A stretch of 64,000 nucleotides of DNA, from NCBI GenBank assembly GCA_963708295.1, contig CAVPSJ010000008.1, forward strand, positions 128,001 to 192,000, in the 5' to 3' direction. Source of the DNA: an uncultured delta proteobacterium. Lineage in GTDB: Bacteria; Desulfobacterota; BSN033; UBA1163. Made by a program: the position numbers and the translations under genes. The notes beneath the pieces were generated by a model that worked only from the letters and a program-made list of their open reading frames with translations, was not told where the DNA came from and ran no database searches. Shown piece by piece: positions 34,271 to 42,814 of the stretch; the first letter of the stretch is position 1; every line of letters starts with the position of its first letter.

Positions 34271-34590
34271 CACGGAGATACGGGGACGCGGGGACCCGGG
34301 GACACTGAGACGCGGAGAACCGGTGATGGGGAGATGGGGAAATTCGGAAACAATAAAATGAAGAAGAGGGAGATGCAGTCATAAGAGTCCAGTAATCTGT
34401 TCCGTGAGCATTTGTTTGATCCCGCAGACACTTTCAACCTGCCACCAATTTCTTCCTGAAATGTTGATTGTTCATTTTAGTTCCATAATACAAGATTTCA
34501 AACGGCAATTGGTAATGTGCTAATAACATTCCTTTCTTCCCAAGTTATTTTACCCCAAAAGACTCTCCAAAAACACTCCCAAAACACTCC

Positions 34591-35026: not shown

Positions 35027-35187
35027 CAGTCTGGCTAAGAACAGGAATCAAATTCCAAAACTGGGAGCAATTGACGGAGGAGAAGACCTAAAATTGCCTA
35101 CAATAAATTTGTTTACTTAGATTATTAGGCACTACAGGGTCCAGAGATATACAAATATTTCTGGAGGTTAAAAACCTTGATAGTCGG

Positions 35188-35222
35188 GCCGCTATCTGTA
35201 CGTGGAGGATAGCGGCTTTTTT
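35188..35222 (+). terminator. Intrinsic terminator-like hairpin
   Basis: GCCGCTATC-loop-GATAGCGGC followed by a T tract. Confidence 0.55.
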
Positions 35223-35281: not shown

Positions 35282-35608
35282 ATGGCAACATGGACATTTC
35301 TTACGAATCATGCAATTGTACTTTTCTTTCTGGCTAAACATCCATTAATCACTGGACGAGAGTTGTCAGGATTAATAGGGATTACGGAAAGGTCAGTAAG
35401 AAATATTATTTCTGATCTCGAATCAGAGGGGTATATCCAAAAGTCCAAAGAGGGAAGGCAAGCAAGGTATAAAACCAATCCGCATTTACCTCTTCGGCAC
35501 CGCACTCAGAAGGATAAGGCAATAAAAATTCTCCTCGAAGCATTAGACGGCGAACAAATACGAAAAGGAGCCAAGAAACGGGAAGCATCGTCGAAGGCAG
35601 TTCTATAA
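35282..35608 (+). CDS. Winged-HTH transcriptional regulator (WTFLTNH family)
   Basis: WTFLTNHA, RELSGLIGITERSVRNIISDLESEGYI, GRQARY...PLRH. Confidence 0.85.
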   Translation: MATWTFLTNHAIVLFFLAKHPLITGRELSGLIGITERSVRNIISDLESEGYIQKSKEGRQARYKTNPHLPLRHRTQKDKAIKILLEALDGEQIRKGAKKREASSKAVL

Positions 35609-35836
35609 AAAAAGGGACTCCAACTTTCTGTGTCTCCTGTTTCATCGCCTCCGTCGATGTATTCAGGTCAAGTAACGATCCACCCCCTTGTTTCAATATT
35701 TCAAACGATAATCTTGATTACTCAGTATGAGCCACCATTGCGGCTTTGTAGGTGCTATACGTAACATAATCTGCTTTTCCTTGTGATATTAGTTAGTTAA
35801 TGGCTGTTTTCCTTTATCACTTTTTTTCTATCCCTG

Positions 35837-36772
35837 TCAAGATAATTCGTTTTCAGCGCCTCCGAGTAACTCCATGCTCTCCTGTTCGTCGTCATCCTCT
35901 TGTTGCGCCTGCGTTCTTTGCAGAACCACCTGCATGGCCTTGTAGTAGTCTCGTTGGACCTTGAGGTTGGCTACGCGGCAGTAGCGCTGCGTGGTGGTAA
36001 TCTGGCCATGTCCCAGAAGGTCCTGAATGGTCGCAAGGTCGGCATCGGCATTGAGAAGCTGTGTGGCCATGGTGTGGCGAAGCCGATGACACGAGACGTT
36101 GAGTCCACTTTGTCGCCCATAGTATTCGATCCTCTTCTGAATGCCTCGGACCGATATCGGTTTGCCTCTCATCGGTCCCTTCTGCACCAGAAACAATCCT
36201 CTGGCTTTCGAGGACCGTTTCGCCAGATACACCGAAAGAGCGGATTGGGCATCTTCACTCATGTAGACCACCCGATCCTTCGCCCCTTTTCCATGGAAGA
36301 CAAAGATCTGTCTTCTCCCGTACTCTACCGCATCAACCGTCAGCTCAGCCACCTCCTGGACCCGAAGGCCGCAGCGGAGCATCAACATGAACATGGCCCG
36401 GTCTCTCAGATCCGTGATGCCATCAAAGAGGCCCCTGACCTGGTCATCCTTCAGGTGCCGGGGCAGTGGCTTGGGCAGACGGAGCGAGATCCGGGTGACA
36501 GGGTTGATGATCGATCTGCCTTCCTCATTTGTGAGATAGTCGAAGAAGAGACGAATCGTTTGCAGGTGGCACGTGATCGTCTTGGGCGTTCGTCTCTTTC
36601 GGAGCAGATGATCGACATAGGCTCCGATCTCCTTACGAGTCACATCAGAGAGAGGCACGGTAAGCCATCGGATGAACTGATCGAGGATGTTGACATAGCT
36701 CTTGACCGTGTGGGCCGAGTAGTTTTTTCTCTTCAAGGCTCTCCGGTACCCAATCAGCTCAGTAGGTTCCAT
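35837..36772 (-). CDS. Tyrosine recombinase (XerC/D-like), second of pair
   Basis: N-terminal SAM-like domain; RCGLR, GKGAK, HRLRH, LLGH, TQRY give a complete R-K-H-R-H-Y set. Confidence 0.93.
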   Translation of the reverse strand: MEPTELIGYRRALKRKNYSAHTVKSYVNILDQFIRWLTVPLSDVTRKEIGAYVDHLLRKRRTPKTITCHLQTIRLFFDYLTNEEGRSIINPVTRISLRLPKPLPRHLKDDQVRGLFDGITDLRDRAMFMLMLRCGLRVQEVAELTVDAVEYGRRQIFVFHGKGAKDRVVYMSEDAQSALSVYLAKRSSKARGLFLVQKGPMRGKPISVRGIQKRIEYYGRQSGLNVSCHRLRHTMATQLLNADADLATIQDLLGHGQITTTQRYCRVANLKVQRDYYKAMQVVLQRTQAQQEDDDEQESMELLGGAENELS

Positions 36773-37772
36773 CGATCCCTCCTTTCTCGATAATGGCCAT
36801 GGCCCGGAAGTACTCTTGTTCACGGGTTCTGTCCGTGAGCCGGGCGTATCGGCGGGTGACCTCGATGTCCTGATGACCCAGTAGCTGCTGGAGACATTCC
36901 AGGCGCATCCCCGCGTTGAGAAGCTCGGAGGCAAACGTGTGACGCAGACAATGGACCGTGTAGCCTTTCTGTTCAAACCCTGCTTTCTTGAGGTATTTTA
37001 CGAAAAGGTATCTGCCGGTACTGTAACAGAGATGCCCATTGCTCTGGCCGTAAAAGACGAATTCCTTGTTCTTGTCCCTTTGCCTCAGCCAAAGCTTGAT
37101 GGCAAACAGCGCATCGTCACTCAGATACACCACCCTCCCCATGCTGTTCTTCTCTCCCTCGTACAGATCAACCTTTCTACCTTTGATGTCCAGATCGTTT
37201 AACCTTAGTCCCAAGGCCTCGCCGATCCGGATGCCTGTCCGTAAAAGCAGAAGGATCAGAGCCCGGTCCCGGATCTCCTCAATCACCGAGAGAAGTTTTC
37301 TCACATCGACGGGGTTCATCGCCCGAGGCAGGACCTCCGGCAGCTTCAGCTTGATGCCTCGCTTGAGAACGGATCCTGGGATGATATCCTGCTCCATCAG
37401 AAAATGCACAAATGCAAGGATGCAAGCCACCCTCGTCCGCACCGTGGAGATGCGTAATCCCCGGTCCTGCTCCTGCTCGATGAAACCTTCCAGGTCCCTC
37501 CGTTCGAGTTTCTCGATTTCTCTCTTGCCTAACTTCCCATAAAAGTCCAGGAAGAGCCTGACGGAGTTAAAGGAACCGGACAGCGTACTCCGTTTGTGGT
37601 TCAGACGCCACTTGTGGCGCATGTAGCGCTCCAAGTGTTCCTTGGCGGGAAGCTCTAACCAAGAGAGCTTCTGGAGGATGCGGTCGATTGGCGTGGGTGA
37701 AAGAGGCTGTTCACGTACAACTTCATCTTCACACTTGATTGACTCATTGCTGATCAACTGTCCCTGGGTCAT
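36759..37772 (-). CDS. Tyrosine recombinase (XerC/D-like), first of pair
   Basis: RTGIR, GEKNS, HCLRH, LLGH, TRRY; RBS AAAGGAGG; overlaps the second gene by 14 bp. Confidence 0.93.
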   Translation of the reverse strand: MTQGQLISNESIKCEDEVVREQPLSPTPIDRILQKLSWLELPAKEHLERYMRHKWRLNHKRSTLSGSFNSVRLFLDFYGKLGKREIEKLERRDLEGFIEQEQDRGLRISTVRTRVACILAFVHFLMEQDIIPGSVLKRGIKLKLPEVLPRAMNPVDVRKLLSVIEEIRDRALILLLLRTGIRIGEALGLRLNDLDIKGRKVDLYEGEKNSMGRVVYLSDDALFAIKLWLRQRDKNKEFVFYGQSNGHLCYSTGRYLFVKYLKKAGFEQKGYTVHCLRHTFASELLNAGMRLECLQQLLGHQDIEVTRRYARLTDRTREQEYFRAMAIIEKGGIDGTY

Positions 37773-37983
37773 TTCTCTTCCTCCTTTTCTTTTGCAAGAA
37801 AAAGCAGAATAGATCATGACCCTTAGCACTTCTAACGGTCAATCCATTTTGTTACGTATAGGTAGGTGTAACCTGCAACCCACTTTTTCACCTCTTCCTA
37901 CCTGTAACTTTCTCTTCCCTAATTTGTGAAATGAGTGTATATTGCAAGCGGGTGAGGTGTGAAGATAATATTGAAACCAAACT

Positions 37984-38062
37984 GTCCAACTAATCGCTCA
38001 AGCGGACTCGCTGCGTCTATGCTGCGCTTCACCTGCGCTCGCCGCTTGGGGTGGTATTGGAT
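37984..38062 (+). other. Integron attC-like site
   Basis: GTCCAAC-TAATCGC-TCAAGCGGACTCGC...GCGCTCGCCGCTTGG-GGTGGT-ATTGGAT: R'', L'', L' and an R' with G>A, forming an imperfect hairpin. Confidence 0.7.
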
Positions 38063-38087
38063 CACACACGATGAAGGGGGGTCATAA

Positions 38088-38651
38088 ATGAGCAGCTACC
38101 GTGTACATTACAAAAAAGGTGATGTCGAGATTGAAGTCGAGTCTACTGACAAGGACTACGTTGGCCAAATGTTGCAGAAATTCCTCCCGCCGCAGGCGCC
38201 TAAGATTCCGGCGGGCAAACCCGCAAAGCAAAAAGGTAAACCCCCCAAAATTGGCCGTCGACATCCCCAAGGCAAGGAAGCCGTAGCGAATGAAGAAGAA
38301 ACCATGATCGATTACGCTGCAGTTGCGAACGCCGTTCATGAGTCGGACAAGACCGAGGATATTCAAAAGAACATCCTGAACAAACGGGACAATCTTGGTC
38401 GCATTCTGCTGTCATTCCACTTCGCTCATGAGGCAGGAAATGAATATCTTACAACCGGCGATGTTGAGAAGATTACCGATCAACTTAGGATTAAAATTTC
38501 TCAACCTAATGTATCGGGCTGCGTGGCCAAAAACCGCAAATACTTCTCAGCGGCGAGAGCGCGACGAAGGGGGGCAGTAGTGCCTTACAAATTGAACAGG
38601 GCAGGGGAGCAGGCTTACGAGAAACTCATAGCCGGCGGGAAGGTGAAATAG
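38088..38651 (+). CDS. Hypothetical protein with a predicted C-terminal winged-helix domain (cassette gene 1)
   Basis: KKGDVEIEVES N-terminal module, Pro/Lys linker, LTTGDVEKI...NVSGCV...YKLNRAGE wHTH-like tail. Confidence 0.75.
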   Translation: MSSYRVHYKKGDVEIEVESTDKDYVGQMLQKFLPPQAPKIPAGKPAKQKGKPPKIGRRHPQGKEAVANEEETMIDYAAVANAVHESDKTEDIQKNILNKRDNLGRILLSFHFAHEAGNEYLTTGDVEKITDQLRIKISQPNVSGCVAKNRKYFSAARARRRGAVVPYKLNRAGEQAYEKLIAGGKVK

Positions 38652-38652
38652 C

Positions 38653-39441
38653 ATGCCGTCCATAGACAAGAACACTCTTCTCGCTGCAATATGCCCACCT
38701 CTTGACCAACGTCTGGCCGACCAGATGGTTGATGAGTTCATATCATTAGAACGGCGCTACGTGCTTCGTGATTGGGAGCCGGCTACTCTTGACGGAGGTC
38801 AATTCGCGGAAGCGTCAGCAAGGCTACTATACCATCAGGACTCGAGAACCTTGAACCGCCGTAAGGGCGTAAATGAATGCCTCACCTATGTGGAAGACCC
38901 CGCCAATTCAAATCCTCATGCATTTCCGGAGCGAAAAGCAGCCCTCCATATTGACAGGATTATTCGTACCATCTACAAGTTCCGTTCAGATCGTGGTGCA
39001 GTACATATAGACCCCGATTATACGGCGAACCATCTGGACTCCAAGCTTGTACTTGAGAACTGCCGCTGGGTTATATCGGAATTCCTACGGGTGTTTTGGA
39101 CTGCAGACCGGCGCCAGGTTGCAGCTGCAATCCGGCAGATTATTCAGTATGACGTACCAGTAATCGGCGTTTATGACGGATGTCCGCTTGTTCAAAGGGT
39201 CGATTGCTCGGCAGAAGAGGAAATCCTCATCCTACTTCATCACGCCGGGGAAGAGGGGTTGAGCCGCACCGAAATCGGTCGCGCCGTACTGAGAGGGGCG
39301 CCTGCTGTCACAAAAGCTCTGACCATACTCATTTCACCGAGACGCCGCGAGGTCGTGAAGTTACAAAATGGGAACTATCGGCTGACGGATATCGGTATAC
39401 GCCGCGTTCTGACTGAGCTTGCCGATAAACTCGTAATTTGA
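38653..39441 (+). CDS. Hypothetical protein with a HEPN-like R-x6-H motif and C-terminal winged helix (cassette gene 2)
   Basis: GGQFAE...IYKFRSDRGAVH...ANHLDS; EEILILLHHAGEEGLSRTEIG...YRLTDIG. Starts 1 bp after the gene 1 stop. Confidence 0.75.
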   Translation: MPSIDKNTLLAAICPPLDQRLADQMVDEFISLERRYVLRDWEPATLDGGQFAEASARLLYHQDSRTLNRRKGVNECLTYVEDPANSNPHAFPERKAALHIDRIIRTIYKFRSDRGAVHIDPDYTANHLDSKLVLENCRWVISEFLRVFWTADRRQVAAAIRQIIQYDVPVIGVYDGCPLVQRVDCSAEEEILILLHHAGEEGLSRTEIGRAVLRGAPAVTKALTILISPRRREVVKLQNGNYRLTDIGIRRVLTELADKLVI

Positions 39442-39449
39442 GCGAGAAA

Positions 39450-39513
39450 GTCAAACAAACGGCTGCACCCGCTCCGCCGATAAACCCGGCTCCCGGTGAC
39501 CTTTTCGTTACCC
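39450..39513 (+). other. Integron attC-like site (degenerate)
   Basis: GTCAAAC-AAACGGC-TGCACC...CCGATAAACCCGG...GGTGA-CCTTTTC-GTTACCC, starting 9 bp after the gene 2 stop. Confidence 0.6.
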
Positions 39514-39686
39514 TCTCTTTCAACTCGTAATCTTTGATTCCTGATTATGGTTGTCCGTAATGACTTGTAGGTGTTATATCTATAAGAAGAGATGTTTGTT
39601 GATGTCCCTCCCCTTACCCTTTCTCCCAATCTTCTTATCTTCCCATCTCCGCGTCACCGTGTCTCGCCGTCACCGCGTCTATTATC

Positions 39687-39996
39687 TCACCGCGTCAATG
39701 CATCTCTTAAGATCTGGATAGGATGGAGGACTTTCAATCCAGTGAGGTGACGGATTTGCAGGCGACAGCCTTCGCAGTCGGACAGGATAATTTCGGGTTT
39801 GAGACGGTCGATCGCCTCCTTCAAATCCCTTCCGATCTCCTGAGAGATCTCATATTTTTCTTTCTTAAATCCATAGGTACCGCCCAGCCCGCAGCAATCC
39901 GCTTCGATGTTGTCCAGTTGAAGGCCCGGGATAGAGCGGAGGATTTCAACGGCAGGGAGGCCAATTCCCAGGGCTCTCAAATGACATGGGGCAAAA
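39687..39996 (-). pseudogene. Duplicated 3' fragment of glpC
   Basis: 39699-39996 aligns to 41624-41921 (298 bp, offset 1925) with scattered substitutions; the 5' part is missing. Confidence 0.88.
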
Positions 39997-40205
39997 AAGA
40001 AGGGGACGTAGGTTCTGAGACAACTTGGGGAAGAAGCACGAGCCCCAGCCGTTGACAAGAAAGATTCGGTTCCTTCGTCTGGGAAAGAAAAAATGGGGCA
40101 GCCAATTGAGTGTATTGTAATGGAAACACTCCTTTGTTTCGCAGTCTGTGTCAACCAGAATGGCTACTTTATTTTTGACGTGAGACGGTCAGCAGAGCAG
40201 ACAGG

Positions 40206-40640
40206 TTATTTCTTGTTCTCTTGGGAAGATAAGTATTTGATAATCGCTTTCTTATATTTTTCAAAGTCCCTTAAATCCCGGTGAAGAATTGAGACAACAA
40301 TCGTAGGATCGATGGTTTCATATTGATGGACAACGACATTTCTAAATATTGCCATCTTCTCTAATGTTCCGCATAAATTCCTACCAATCACCTTGTTTTC
40401 CATCAAAATCTTAAAAGTATCAGCATAGCCAGTTGGCAGCCTCATTTCCTGGTCAGAAATAATGTGATTCGCAATGTCGACACAAGCCTCGATAAGAATA
40501 TGCAATGTCCTCTCAACGATCCTCTGAGTTTTCCAATCGATTTTATATCGATTCAGAGAAATTCTGGAGAAATCCCCAATCTGTTTAAGATAGGTATCTA
40601 TCTGGACAAGCTTCCTCCCTATCAAGAGCTTATCAACCAA
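40206..40640 (-). CDS. HepT-like (DUF86) HEPN ribonuclease toxin
   Basis: VERTLHILIEACVDIANHII; FRNVVVHQY (RX4HXY). Confidence 0.9.
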   Translation of the reverse strand: MVDKLLIGRKLVQIDTYLKQIGDFSRISLNRYKIDWKTQRIVERTLHILIEACVDIANHIISDQEMRLPTGYADTFKILMENKVIGRNLCGTLEKMAIFRNVVVHQYETIDPTIVVSILHRDLRDFEKYKKAIIKYLSSQENKK

Positions 40641-41049
40641 TGCCGTACCTCCTATGCAGGATCTCTCTTTCTTTTATGGTAAAATCAAAAAATTCTCTCA
40701 GTATTCGAGATTCGTATTTGTGTCTCAGAAAAGGGTCTTTATCAATCAAGATTTTTCTTTTCTGCAAAATCCTTCCAGCGAGGCTAATGGGCGCGGAATT
40801 CAGGACGACCAAGTCGATCTCATCGGTACCGAGAATTCGTGAAATTTCACTGAATAACGAAAGGAAGTCTAATCTCTTTATATTCCTCACGTATATCCCC
40901 AGATCGACATCACTCAAGATTCTCCTTTTGTCTCTTGCCATGCCCCCAAAAAGGTAAGCGAAGATAATATTGGGGTCATCCATGAAAAGATCGGCTAAGA
41001 GATCGAGATGTTTGTGGATGTCTTCCGGTATCCTTTTAAAACGTATCAT
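40633..41049 (-). CDS. MntA-like minimal nucleotidyltransferase antitoxin
   Basis: FAYLFGG...SDVDLGI, EIDLVVLNSAP; overlaps the HEPN gene. Confidence 0.9.
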   Translation of the reverse strand: MIRFKRIPEDIHKHLDLLADLFMDDPNIIFAYLFGGMARDKRRILSDVDLGIYVRNIKRLDFLSLFSEISRILGTDEIDLVVLNSAPISLAGRILQKRKILIDKDPFLRHKYESRILREFFDFTIKEREILHRRYGIG

Positions 41050-41133: not shown

Positions 41134-41352
41134 CTATGTGCGTTTAAGAATCTCAAAAGGTCTTCGGTGTCCATGCTCGACCATCTGTCTTAGCATCTCT
41201 CTCGATTTCCGTTTCATCATTTTGAGGCGCTCTTCAAAGGTCAAAGAAGCGAGGTAATTCAGTTCAAACTCAAGCTCCTTTTCCTCATCGGACTGGGATA
41301 ATTTAAGGATCGATCCATGGCTTCCCATAGGTTCAAAGTAGACTTTTTCCAT
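41134..41352 (-). CDS. Small hypothetical protein (antitoxin-like)
   Basis: DEEKELEFELNYLASLTFEERLKMM helical pattern; lies upstream of the MNT gene. Confidence 0.55.
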   Translation of the reverse strand: MEKVYFEPMGSHGSILKLSQSDEEKELEFELNYLASLTFEERLKMMKRKSREMLRQMVEHGHRRPFEILKRT

Positions 41353-41614
41353 GTCTAAGTCAAGCCTAATACGGGGTCTTATGCTGACGGAATTAGATTG
41401 AGTTACCAGTGAGGCCATAGTTAAGAAAACGTAATTACACTGCTTCGGTAAATTCCCATCCCTTTCCTAACCTCCCCCTTGAAGGGGGAGGAACATAATG
41501 TTTTCCCTCCCCTTCAGGGGGAGGGAAAGGGTGGGGGTGGGTTAATCAGATGTCTACTCAATTATGGACGACTAGTGAGTCTATAGAGAAAGGGAACATT
41601 GAGGAATATGAGGC

Positions 41615-42814
41615 CTACAGAAGTGCATCTCTTAGAATCTGGATGGGATGCAAAACCTTCAGGCCGGTCAGGTGGCGGATTTGCAGGCGACAGCCTTCGC
41701 AGTCGGACAGGATGATGTCGGGTTTGAGACGGTCGATCGCCTCTGCCAAATCCCTTCCGATCTCCTGGGAGATCTCATATTTTTCTTTCTTAAATCCATA
41801 GGTACCGCCCAGCCCGCAGCAGTCCGCTTCGATGTTGTCCAGTTGAAGACCCGGGATAGAGCGGAGGATTTCAACGGCAGGGAGGCCAATTCCCAGGGCT
41901 CTCAAATGACATGGGGCAAAATAGGCCGTTCTTAGCGAAAGTTGTTTAAAATTTATGTTGAGGTTATTCAATTCCTTTAGGTTTGTGAGAAACTCGAACA
42001 CGTCGAAAGTGTGGGCGGCGACTTCCTCCGCTCCGGGAATGGAGAGGAGTTGGCTGTATTCATGCTTGATCATGTAACCGCAACTGGTTCCGGAAAAGAG
42101 AATGTCCAAGCCCGAATGGACGGCCTTCAGAAAAGAGGGGACGTTCCGAAGGGCCATTTCTTTTGCCGTCTTGAAATCTCCATTCCCGAGCATGGGAATG
42201 CCGCAGCAACTCTGCGGGGGAAGGACGACTTCGAACCCATTGGCCTCCAAGACTTGAACCGTTGCTTTTCCGACGTCGACTTCATTGGTATTGGTATAGC
42301 AGCCGTAAAAATAGCCAACCCTTTTGCTCCCTTTTGAACGGTGTTTTTTAAACCATCTTCTGAAGGTCGAAGATTCGTATCCTGGGAGTTCTCTCCTCCG
42401 ATCTATCCTCAGGAGGATCTCTACGAACCTTTTGATGAGACGGTTTTTTAAGAGAGGATTGAGAAGGAAAGAGGAGAGGGATCCAAAACGTCCAAAAAGA
42501 TAGGAATGAGTGAGAAGCCAGTCCCGAAAGGGTCTTCCTTTTTCATCCAGATATTTTGCCTTGGCGATGAGATTTAGCTCGGAGATATTTACCCCCGAAG
42601 CGCAGACCATGTCACAGAGATGGCATCCGATGCAAAGATCAATCCGTTTATCCACAGAGGGTTCATCCGACCTTCGAAACCGTTCCATCCCGGGCCCCGC
42701 TTGCTTCGGGCCTGGAAATTCTGGGGTGACTCGCGCGACAGGGCAGACCGCCGCGCAGGTCGCGCAGCGGATGCAAACATCGGAGTTATTCTTGGGCCAA
42801 CTTTGTTTTTTCAT
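41615..42814 (-). CDS. glpC: Anaerobic glycerol-3-phosphate dehydrogenase subunit C
   Basis: CIRCATCAAVCP, FPGPKQAGP, CIGCHLCDMVC, two CCG domains. Confidence 0.93.
   Translation of the reverse strand: MKKQSWPKNNSDVCIRCATCAAVCPVARVTPEFPGPKQAGPGMERFRRSDEPSVDKRIDLCIGCHLCDMVCASGVNISELNLIAKAKYLDEKGRPFRDWLLTHSYLFGRFGSLSSFLLNPLLKNRLIKRFVEILLRIDRRRELPGYESSTFRRWFKKHRSKGSKRVGYFYGCYTNTNEVDVGKATVQVLEANGFEVVLPPQSCCGIPMLGNGDFKTAKEMALRNVPSFLKAVHSGLDILFSGTSCGYMIKHEYSQLLSIPGAEEVAAHTFDVFEFLTNLKELNNLNINFKQLSLRTAYFAPCHLRALGIGLPAVEILRSIPGLQLDNIEADCCGLGGTYGFKKEKYEISQEIGRDLAEAIDRLKPDIILSDCEGCRLQIRHLTGLKVLHPIQILRDALL

Follow-up and report, generated by a model that had tools for sequence, protein, structure and literature searches.

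Two intact genes, read from the + strand and separated by a single base pair, fill the space between two attC-like sites in the DNA analysed here, a stretch of 64,000 nucleotides from an uncultured delta proteobacterium ('the window' denotes this whole stretch). The left site ends 25 nt before gene 1 and the right site begins 8 nt after the stop codon of gene 2, which bears out the description, in an earlier note on this DNA, of a coupled pair with almost no leader. The two-gene form spans 1.35 kb; the GC content of the genes is 0.50 and 0.52, against 0.51 for the window. The module is real and intact, and sits in a decayed cassette. Promoter-like sites of the quality of the candidate in Table 1 number six in the region and 1.9 in shuffles.

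Table 1. Positions of the two genes and of the features around them in the window.
Feature	Position	Strand	Description
7-bp direct repeat	35748-35754 and 37862-37868		Flanks the recombinase element
Two-tyrosine-recombinase element	35755..37861	-	Context only; ORFs 36759-37829 and 35837-36976; 12-bp perfect terminal inverted repeats
Sigma-70-like promoter candidate	37942..37969	+	Weak; outside the cassette and directed into it; consensus match 9/12
Left attC site, degenerate	37984..38062	+	End of preceding cassette; A replaces G of the GTT triplet
Gene 1	38088..38651	+	187 aa; beta-hairpin and helix 4-32, low-confidence linker 36-70, wHTH ~98-185
Gene 2	38653..39441	+	262 aa; HEPN ~14-150 (E53-x3-R57, R111-x6-H118), wHTH ~184-257
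Right attC site, strongly degenerate	39450..39513	+	Closes the cassette

The surroundings hold several further features. The variable region, 5.3 kb in all, lies between imperfect 56-nt inverted repeats (71%; 34285-34340 and 39624-39679) that may represent a common interspersed repeat. At 35137-35197, upstream of the gene for a wHTH regulator (35282-35608), there is an nhaA-I RNA motif (Rfam RF03057) whose score of 49.2 bits exceeds the gathering score. Between the two copies of a 300-nt direct duplication (93%; 39699-39998 and 41624-41923), which corresponds to the 3' end of a gene for a cysteine-rich domain, lie a toxin-antitoxin pair of the HepT/MntA kind (40206-41049) and, after it, a small ORF (41134-41418).

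The cassette setting

Both attC-like sites depart from the canonical form. The left one reads ATTGGAT and lacks the G of GTT, described as the conserved attC triplet (10.1101/030866); in the right one the R'' box is altered, the L box has one mismatch and nothing pairs past GTT. A strict box scan detected neither site, Rfam gave no relevant match at either, BLAST searches against plasmids returned chance-level matches only, and the folding energies are no better than those of shuffles (bottom-strand z -1.21 and -0.24).

A two-arm profile was built from 22 reference sites, 20 from six plasmid records and two from a related cyanobacterial locus (L031, see below); these come from related arrays and from the neighbourhood of integrases that are annotated or evident, and only 9 of the 27 sites of the Gemmatirosa array were retained. 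Across the 64-kb window, the left site ranks first (18.7 bits) and the right site second (12.5 bits). The references, each scored with its own source record left out, give 17.6-48.9 bits, and 21 of the 22 are detected. Among 300 shuffled windows, five reach at least 18.7 bits and hits of at least 12.5 bits total 45; none of the 300 contains a same-strand pair within 2 kb. With a covariance model, the left site is the window's top match at 16.4 bits (E 0.067) and the right site scores only 0.7 bits; the reference loci, training sites included, score 23.7-90.8 bits on the correct strand. At least 27 attC sites make up the Gemmatirosa array, itself an integron (L086, 15001-29772; NZ_CP007129.1, Gemmatirosa kalamazoonensis), in a record that carries no annotation in the collection used.

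As a pair, the two sites exceed chance, yet they are degenerate. What stands of the 'attC hairpins' in the earlier note is the presence of two attC-like sites; their hairpin folding does not rise above that of shuffled DNA. In the closest genome relative (L001, Syntrophales; 72% identity in gene 2), a decayed attC-like site with the same A-for-G change lies 19 nt before gene 1 and scores 16.0 bits. A cassette origin is well supported. The arrangement resembles a CALIN in that two same-strand attC-like sites bracket ORFs with no integrase, and it lacks the intact R/L boxes and GTT/AAC triplets of a functional cassette. Since the sites are degenerate, the locus is a stranded cassette relic, and further recombination would be unlikely.

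The recombinase element upstream

The 2.1-kb element to the left of the cassette holds just two tyrosine recombinases, the only ones in the window. It is bounded by its own repeats (Table 1); among 56 twelve-base inverted-repeat pairs in the window, only this one has such a flanking direct repeat. Both recombinases fall far below the TIGR02249 integron-integrase cut-off, and alignment with four annotated integron integrases confirmed the earlier observation that the IntI-specific insertion is missing from both, so that no integron integrase is found in the window. Their own repeats and the missing insertion rule out these proteins as the cassette's integrase. They make up an element of their own, whose insertion point is about 120 bp upstream of the left attC site, and the divergent, intI-like layout is presumably a coincidence. 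A third copy of the 7-bp repeat, with bases resembling the element's left end after it, occurs at 39565-39585, just beyond the right attC site; this could be due to chance, or could represent a second target site that would let the element carry the cassette.

Structures and properties of the two proteins

The structure model of gene 2 has a mean pLDDT of 92.4 and comprises two domains. For residues 14-150, the top three VIA matches are all HEPN domains, namely 2hsb (Z 11.7, rmsd 3.2, 124 residues aligned), 3o10 (Z 10.8) and 1ufb (Z 10.5), and the Atlas points towards the HEPN family Ymh (score 0.78). The best of these Z values is moderate, being lower than the level of about 13 that is safe for helical bundles in VIA; therefore, the motif carries weight. 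Foldseek gave no match at E 0.001 among the families listed in PDB and BFVD. The HEPN fold proposed in the earlier note is supported.

The active site of HEPN proteins has been described as an acidic residue in helix 2, within Ex3[KR], and an R-x6-H motif ending helix 3, with a polar residue after the R (PMC3710099). The motif positions of gene 2 agree with this description as far as the accessible part of that source gives it; in the model, E53-x3-R57 lies within helix 41-64, and R111-x6-H118 follows helix 94-113. The sequences GQFAE and R-SDRGAV-H, singled out in the earlier note, contain these residues: E53, R111 and H118 are each conserved in 126 of 127 aligned proteins (20-82% identity), and R111 is followed by S or N in 124/127. 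Conservation across the positions of the HEPN motif test is 126/127, 126/127, 126/127 and 103/127. D129 and W139 are conserved in all 127 aligned proteins; the closest genome relative (L001, 8001-8789) has Tyr at the otherwise invariant D129. On the basis of its motif, gene 2 is predicted to encode an RNase.

The second domain of gene 2, residues 184-257, matches MarR-type wHTH domains in structure comparison, and a profile search gave a match to MepR/MarR wHTH proteins (E 3e-5). In the model of gene 1 (mean pLDDT 77.8), a beta-hairpin and a helix are followed by a disordered linker and then by a wHTH domain; the top VIA matches of gene 1 are likewise wHTH proteins (Z 9.2, rmsd 3.6, 82 aligned). 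Both proteins thus end in a wHTH, as the earlier note had it. The wHTH of gene 1 has a net charge of +10, and gene 1 probably binds DNA by means of this basic domain. A search with gene 1 returned 33 proteins, the window's own included; a separate search for longer, fused forms gave none, which is weak evidence.

Size and annotation of the family

Searches with gene 2 recovered 803 homologues among 2028 candidates; clustering gives 825 representatives at 50% identity (E <=0.001), a number that includes fragments and wHTH-only matches. Relatives at 90-93% identity exist. Neither gene matches Pfam, NCBIfam or PADLOC (a lone Pfam row at E 0.12 is noise), and none of the 127 aligned HEPN proteins convincingly matches a HEPN or defence model; these libraries therefore miss the HEPN-wHTH family. 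When 30 partner and neighbour proteins were submitted to PADLOC, only one WYL gene and one weak AbiEi row were obtained. The plasmids gave a single distant archaeal match, which has no partner upstream of it, and no match to any of four partner queries; phages gave no match.

The literature searched, which takes in few subscription journals, yielded no experimental study of a wHTH + HEPN-wHTH pair, and the accessible parts of PMC6929052 and PMC10440598 describe nothing that matches. The pair was called unannotated in the earlier note; this is true as regards Pfam, NCBIfam and PADLOC, but there is a predicted class of matching architecture, the poly-wHTH systems discussed below.

Related loci and partner genes

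A scan of GTDB genomes provided 108 relatives, of which the best 80 were retained; the scan required one of two conserved peptide patterns and is therefore biased towards the nearer subfamily. L030 (Cupriavidus), L015 (Rhodopseudomonas) and L014 (Pedobacter) belong to hosts that are in culture. A coupled partner, taken as an upstream ORF of at least 100 aa, is present at 70 of the 80 loci, and lies within 20 nt of the HEPN gene in 61 of these 70. The other ten comprise five contig ends, three broken partners (L010, L039 and L059), one distant partner (L019, 162 nt away) and one locus (L037, 8001-8786) with a full-length HEPN gene and no detectable partner. In L039 and L059 the HEPN gene is truncated as well; in L010 it is full-length, with a frameshifted partner. 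A partner or its remnant is thus retained at 74 of the 75 assessable genome loci.

Partner proteins diverge faster than the HEPN proteins that they accompany. They fall into seven BLAST groups with 44, 11, 3 (plus gene 1), 4, 4, 3 and 1 members. Profile comparison links the group of gene 1 to two others, with probabilities of 85% and 92%, and the smaller groups are not unifiable by profile. A wHTH is indicated by the model in gene 1, by profiles in three groups (54-92% probability), and by eye only in the three smallest. All 223 locus pairs compared, of which 150 are a sample of the largest group, show lower identity between the partners than between the HEPN proteins. Four N-terminal types were distinguished by eye, only gene 1 having been modelled: a beta-hairpin plus helix, a helical hairpin, a double zinc ribbon and a second wHTH. 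The signal for tandem wHTH copies in the 11 zinc-ribbon partners is weak, with E 0.5-3.4 for the second domain.

On a quick tree of 77 HEPN proteins from many phyla (four short ones were omitted), partner type changes seven times, against a minimum of six and a shuffled mean of 25.8. Since kin share partner labels, this result reflects clustering, not co-evolution; it is consistent with a pair that moves as a unit.

Extra partner-like genes occur at five of the 80 loci (L002, L003, L004, L006 and L069). The richest array of the 80 is that of L004 (4240-7232), with three small wHTH-like genes before the HEPN gene and a partner-like fragment after it. Where the partner is complete in the ten loci from Nostoc and relatives (L071-L080), it measures 434-440 aa and contains a double zinc ribbon. 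Seven of these loci have a divergent WYL-domain gene upstream, and nine have two conserved unknown genes downstream. One ParA motif was found across the 80 loci, 4 kb from the pair.

Genomic neighbourhoods

Only one of the 80 related loci lies in a clear attC array. This is L031, from a cyanobacterium, where the pair has an inverted orientation within the array and the IntI is frameshifted; two of its five scored attC sites belonged to the training set. The decayed site of L001 adds a similar case, L030 has one attC site about 3 kb away, and one match that had been expected to be an integron proved otherwise. A general integron association of the family is ruled out by this count. The cassette described in the earlier note is thus sustained as the origin of the locus, and its setting is incidental to the family.

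Neighbouring genes were classified by hand from simple ORF calls, with 11 redundant loci dropped and two scans at 1e-6 and 1e-8. Defence or mobile genes make up 20 of 118 nearest neighbours and 6 of 95 genes more than 5 kb away (p 0.02); for defence genes alone, the numbers are 12/118 and 4/95, which is not significant (p 0.12). Many loci adjoin housekeeping genes such as lepA, groEL, thiC and dnaK. The pair sits directly beside lepA (L015, L029, L038), groEL (L047, L067) or thiC (L011, L032) in different genera, and these repeat locations suggest favoured insertion spots.

Proposed mode of action

The reading that we favour, with rather better than even confidence, is that of a wHTH + HEPN-wHTH module that would act against phages or plasmids, with an RNase gated by its wHTH partner. 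As is general for HEPN RNases, the active site would form in a dimer. The module came in as an integron cassette and now lies stranded between attC sites that have decayed. Gene 2 would encode a latent RNase, and gene 1, bound to DNA through its basic wHTH, would either keep the RNase off or position it. Invading DNA or a phage product might then disturb or recruit the wHTH proteins and so release RNA cleavage, which would lead to growth arrest. Gating could take the form of restraint, for which the type IX retron offers a parallel, or of recruitment of the RNase to foreign DNA.

A defence role is favoured by the HEPN domains as the top three structural matches, the placement of the motif, the near-obligate pairing, the faster divergence of the partner, the clustering of partner types on the HEPN tree, the extra partner-like genes at five loci, and the defence-or-mobile neighbours. 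The predicted poly-wHTH systems and the WH-restrained HEPN RNase of the type IX retron, both discussed below, speak for it as well. Against it stand the Z values below 13, the lack of a Foldseek match, the p of 0.12 for defence genes alone, the housekeeping neighbours and the partnerless L037, together with the near absence from plasmids (one archaeal match) and the absence from phages.

A more far-reaching version, which we put forward only tentatively, is a widespread immune class in which invading DNA is recognised or coated by fast-evolving, interchangeable wHTH proteins; these would switch on the HEPN-wHTH RNase by assembling it there, with no antitoxin release. If true, two small proteins would achieve DNA-sensing abortive infection without an ATPase, a reverse transcriptase or a second messenger, and an integron would have sampled such a system here.

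The strongest competitor, although unlikely, is a type II toxin-antitoxin system that serves addiction or the stress response, with gene 1 as a labile antitoxin and autorepressor and gene 2 as a constitutively active RNase. The antitoxin-first order, the tight coupling and the partner or remnant at 74 of 75 assessable loci would all be expected of such a system, as would stand-alone insertion beside housekeeping genes and the basic wHTH of gene 1; in the type IX retron, moreover, the WH protein alone is described as neutralising the HEPN. The distances from attC site to start codon, 25 nt in the window and 19 nt in L001, are by contrast too short for a separate promoter, which toxin-antitoxin cassettes are said to carry, and no palindrome with arms of at least 5 bp is listed for 37861-38090. 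The HEPN gene is full-length in L037, which has no partner, and in L010, where the partner is frameshifted, although either case may be an assembly error, and arrays of several wHTH genes are unexpected for a simple pair. A classical addiction role is less likely than defence.

Still less probable is the model of the preprint on poly-wHTH systems (bioRxiv 10.64898/2026.10.19.760177), in which the wHTH proteins are the working part that coats or represses foreign DNA and the HEPN RNase is a back-up. The wHTH domains in both proteins and the fast divergence of the partners fit this model, and wHTH-only systems are reported in the accessible part of the preprint; the loci studied here were chosen through the HEPN gene, and therefore wHTH-only systems could not appear among them. 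The HEPN gene is the conserved member, however, with near-invariant residues of catalytic type, and 75 of the 80 loci have no extra partner-like gene. That the copy in the window is a relic which has fallen silent and no longer serves a function is very improbable: both attC sites are decayed with no integrase nearby, an element has inserted about 120 bp upstream and the closest genome relative has Tyr at D129, but both ORFs are intact with every conserved residue kept, relatives at 90-93% identity exist, and a promoter-like site is directed into the cassette.

The gated defence module remains the preferred reading, and the two-gene form offers a small test case for the question of whether the wHTH acts as antitoxin, sensor or effector.

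Comparison with known systems

In having attC sites without an integrase, the locus resembles CALIN and SALIN relics (10.1101/030866, 10.1101/2022.09.11.507474), for which the accessible text proposes degenerate sites as a step towards stable fixation. It differs from a CALIN in that the right site is too decayed for the covariance model, and it may thus fail to be reported as one by IntegronFinder. A cassette relic of this kind represents one route for the spread and fixation of such modules. Taranis (Abi_C) and Esos (bioRxiv 10.1101/2024.07.02.601686) are also small HEPN genes in mostly promoterless cassettes; as described in the part of that preprint available, they are single genes, in contrast to the pair found here. 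Neither gene 2 nor its 126 aligned relatives match Abi_C (Pfam).

HEPN-MNT systems (HepT/MntA) share the HEPN fold with an R-x-H motif and the two-gene operon, but their partner is a nucleotidyltransferase. Membership was rejected, as the partner here is a wHTH protein and the true HepT/MntA pair of the window is separate (40206-41049). In the type IX retron Retron-Kva2, a winged-helix protein restrains a HEPN RNase and the outcome is abortive infection (bioRxiv 10.64898/2026.07.14.738597). The likeness lies in the combination of HEPN RNase and winged-helix partner. The retron differs, according to the accessible text, in that its HEPN lacks Rx4-6H, its WH protein is made up of three domains, and a reverse transcriptase and msDNA are required. 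This assignment, too, was discarded: no reverse transcriptase ORF lies beside the pair, the R-x6-H motif is present, and PADLOC gave no match.

The closest counterpart is a computational prediction, the poly-wHTH (PRA-wHTH) systems of Li, Burroughs and Aravind (October 2026; bioRxiv 10.64898/2026.10.19.760177). Within the literature searched, in which subscription journals are mostly not included, the term occurs only in this preprint. In the accessible text, the genes of previously uncharacterised, rapidly evolving wHTH proteins precede those of alternative effectors, among which HEPN is the most common; some systems carry more than one wHTH copy, and the N-terminal extensions number at least four. 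PRA-wHTH is the wHTH found with ParA-Tox-RelA. The present family agrees in its wide taxonomic spread and its fast-evolving wHTH gene directly upstream of a HEPN effector (70/80 loci; 223/223 pairs), perhaps in its N-terminal extensions, of which four types were told apart by eye, and also in having several wHTH genes in some loci, although this last likeness applies to the family and not to the locus in the window, which has a single wHTH partner gene. Two further differences concern the description itself: its accessible text mentions no wHTH fused to HEPN, as is present in gene 2, and the word 'integron' does not occur in the paper. Compared by description rather than by sequence, the wHTH + HEPN-wHTH family is, in our judgement, likely to be the same as the poly-wHTH systems. 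The locus is probably a new member of this recently predicted class, and very probably the minimal form of such systems. The family is large and extends across many phyla, and its sole description found is a single paragraph of prediction.
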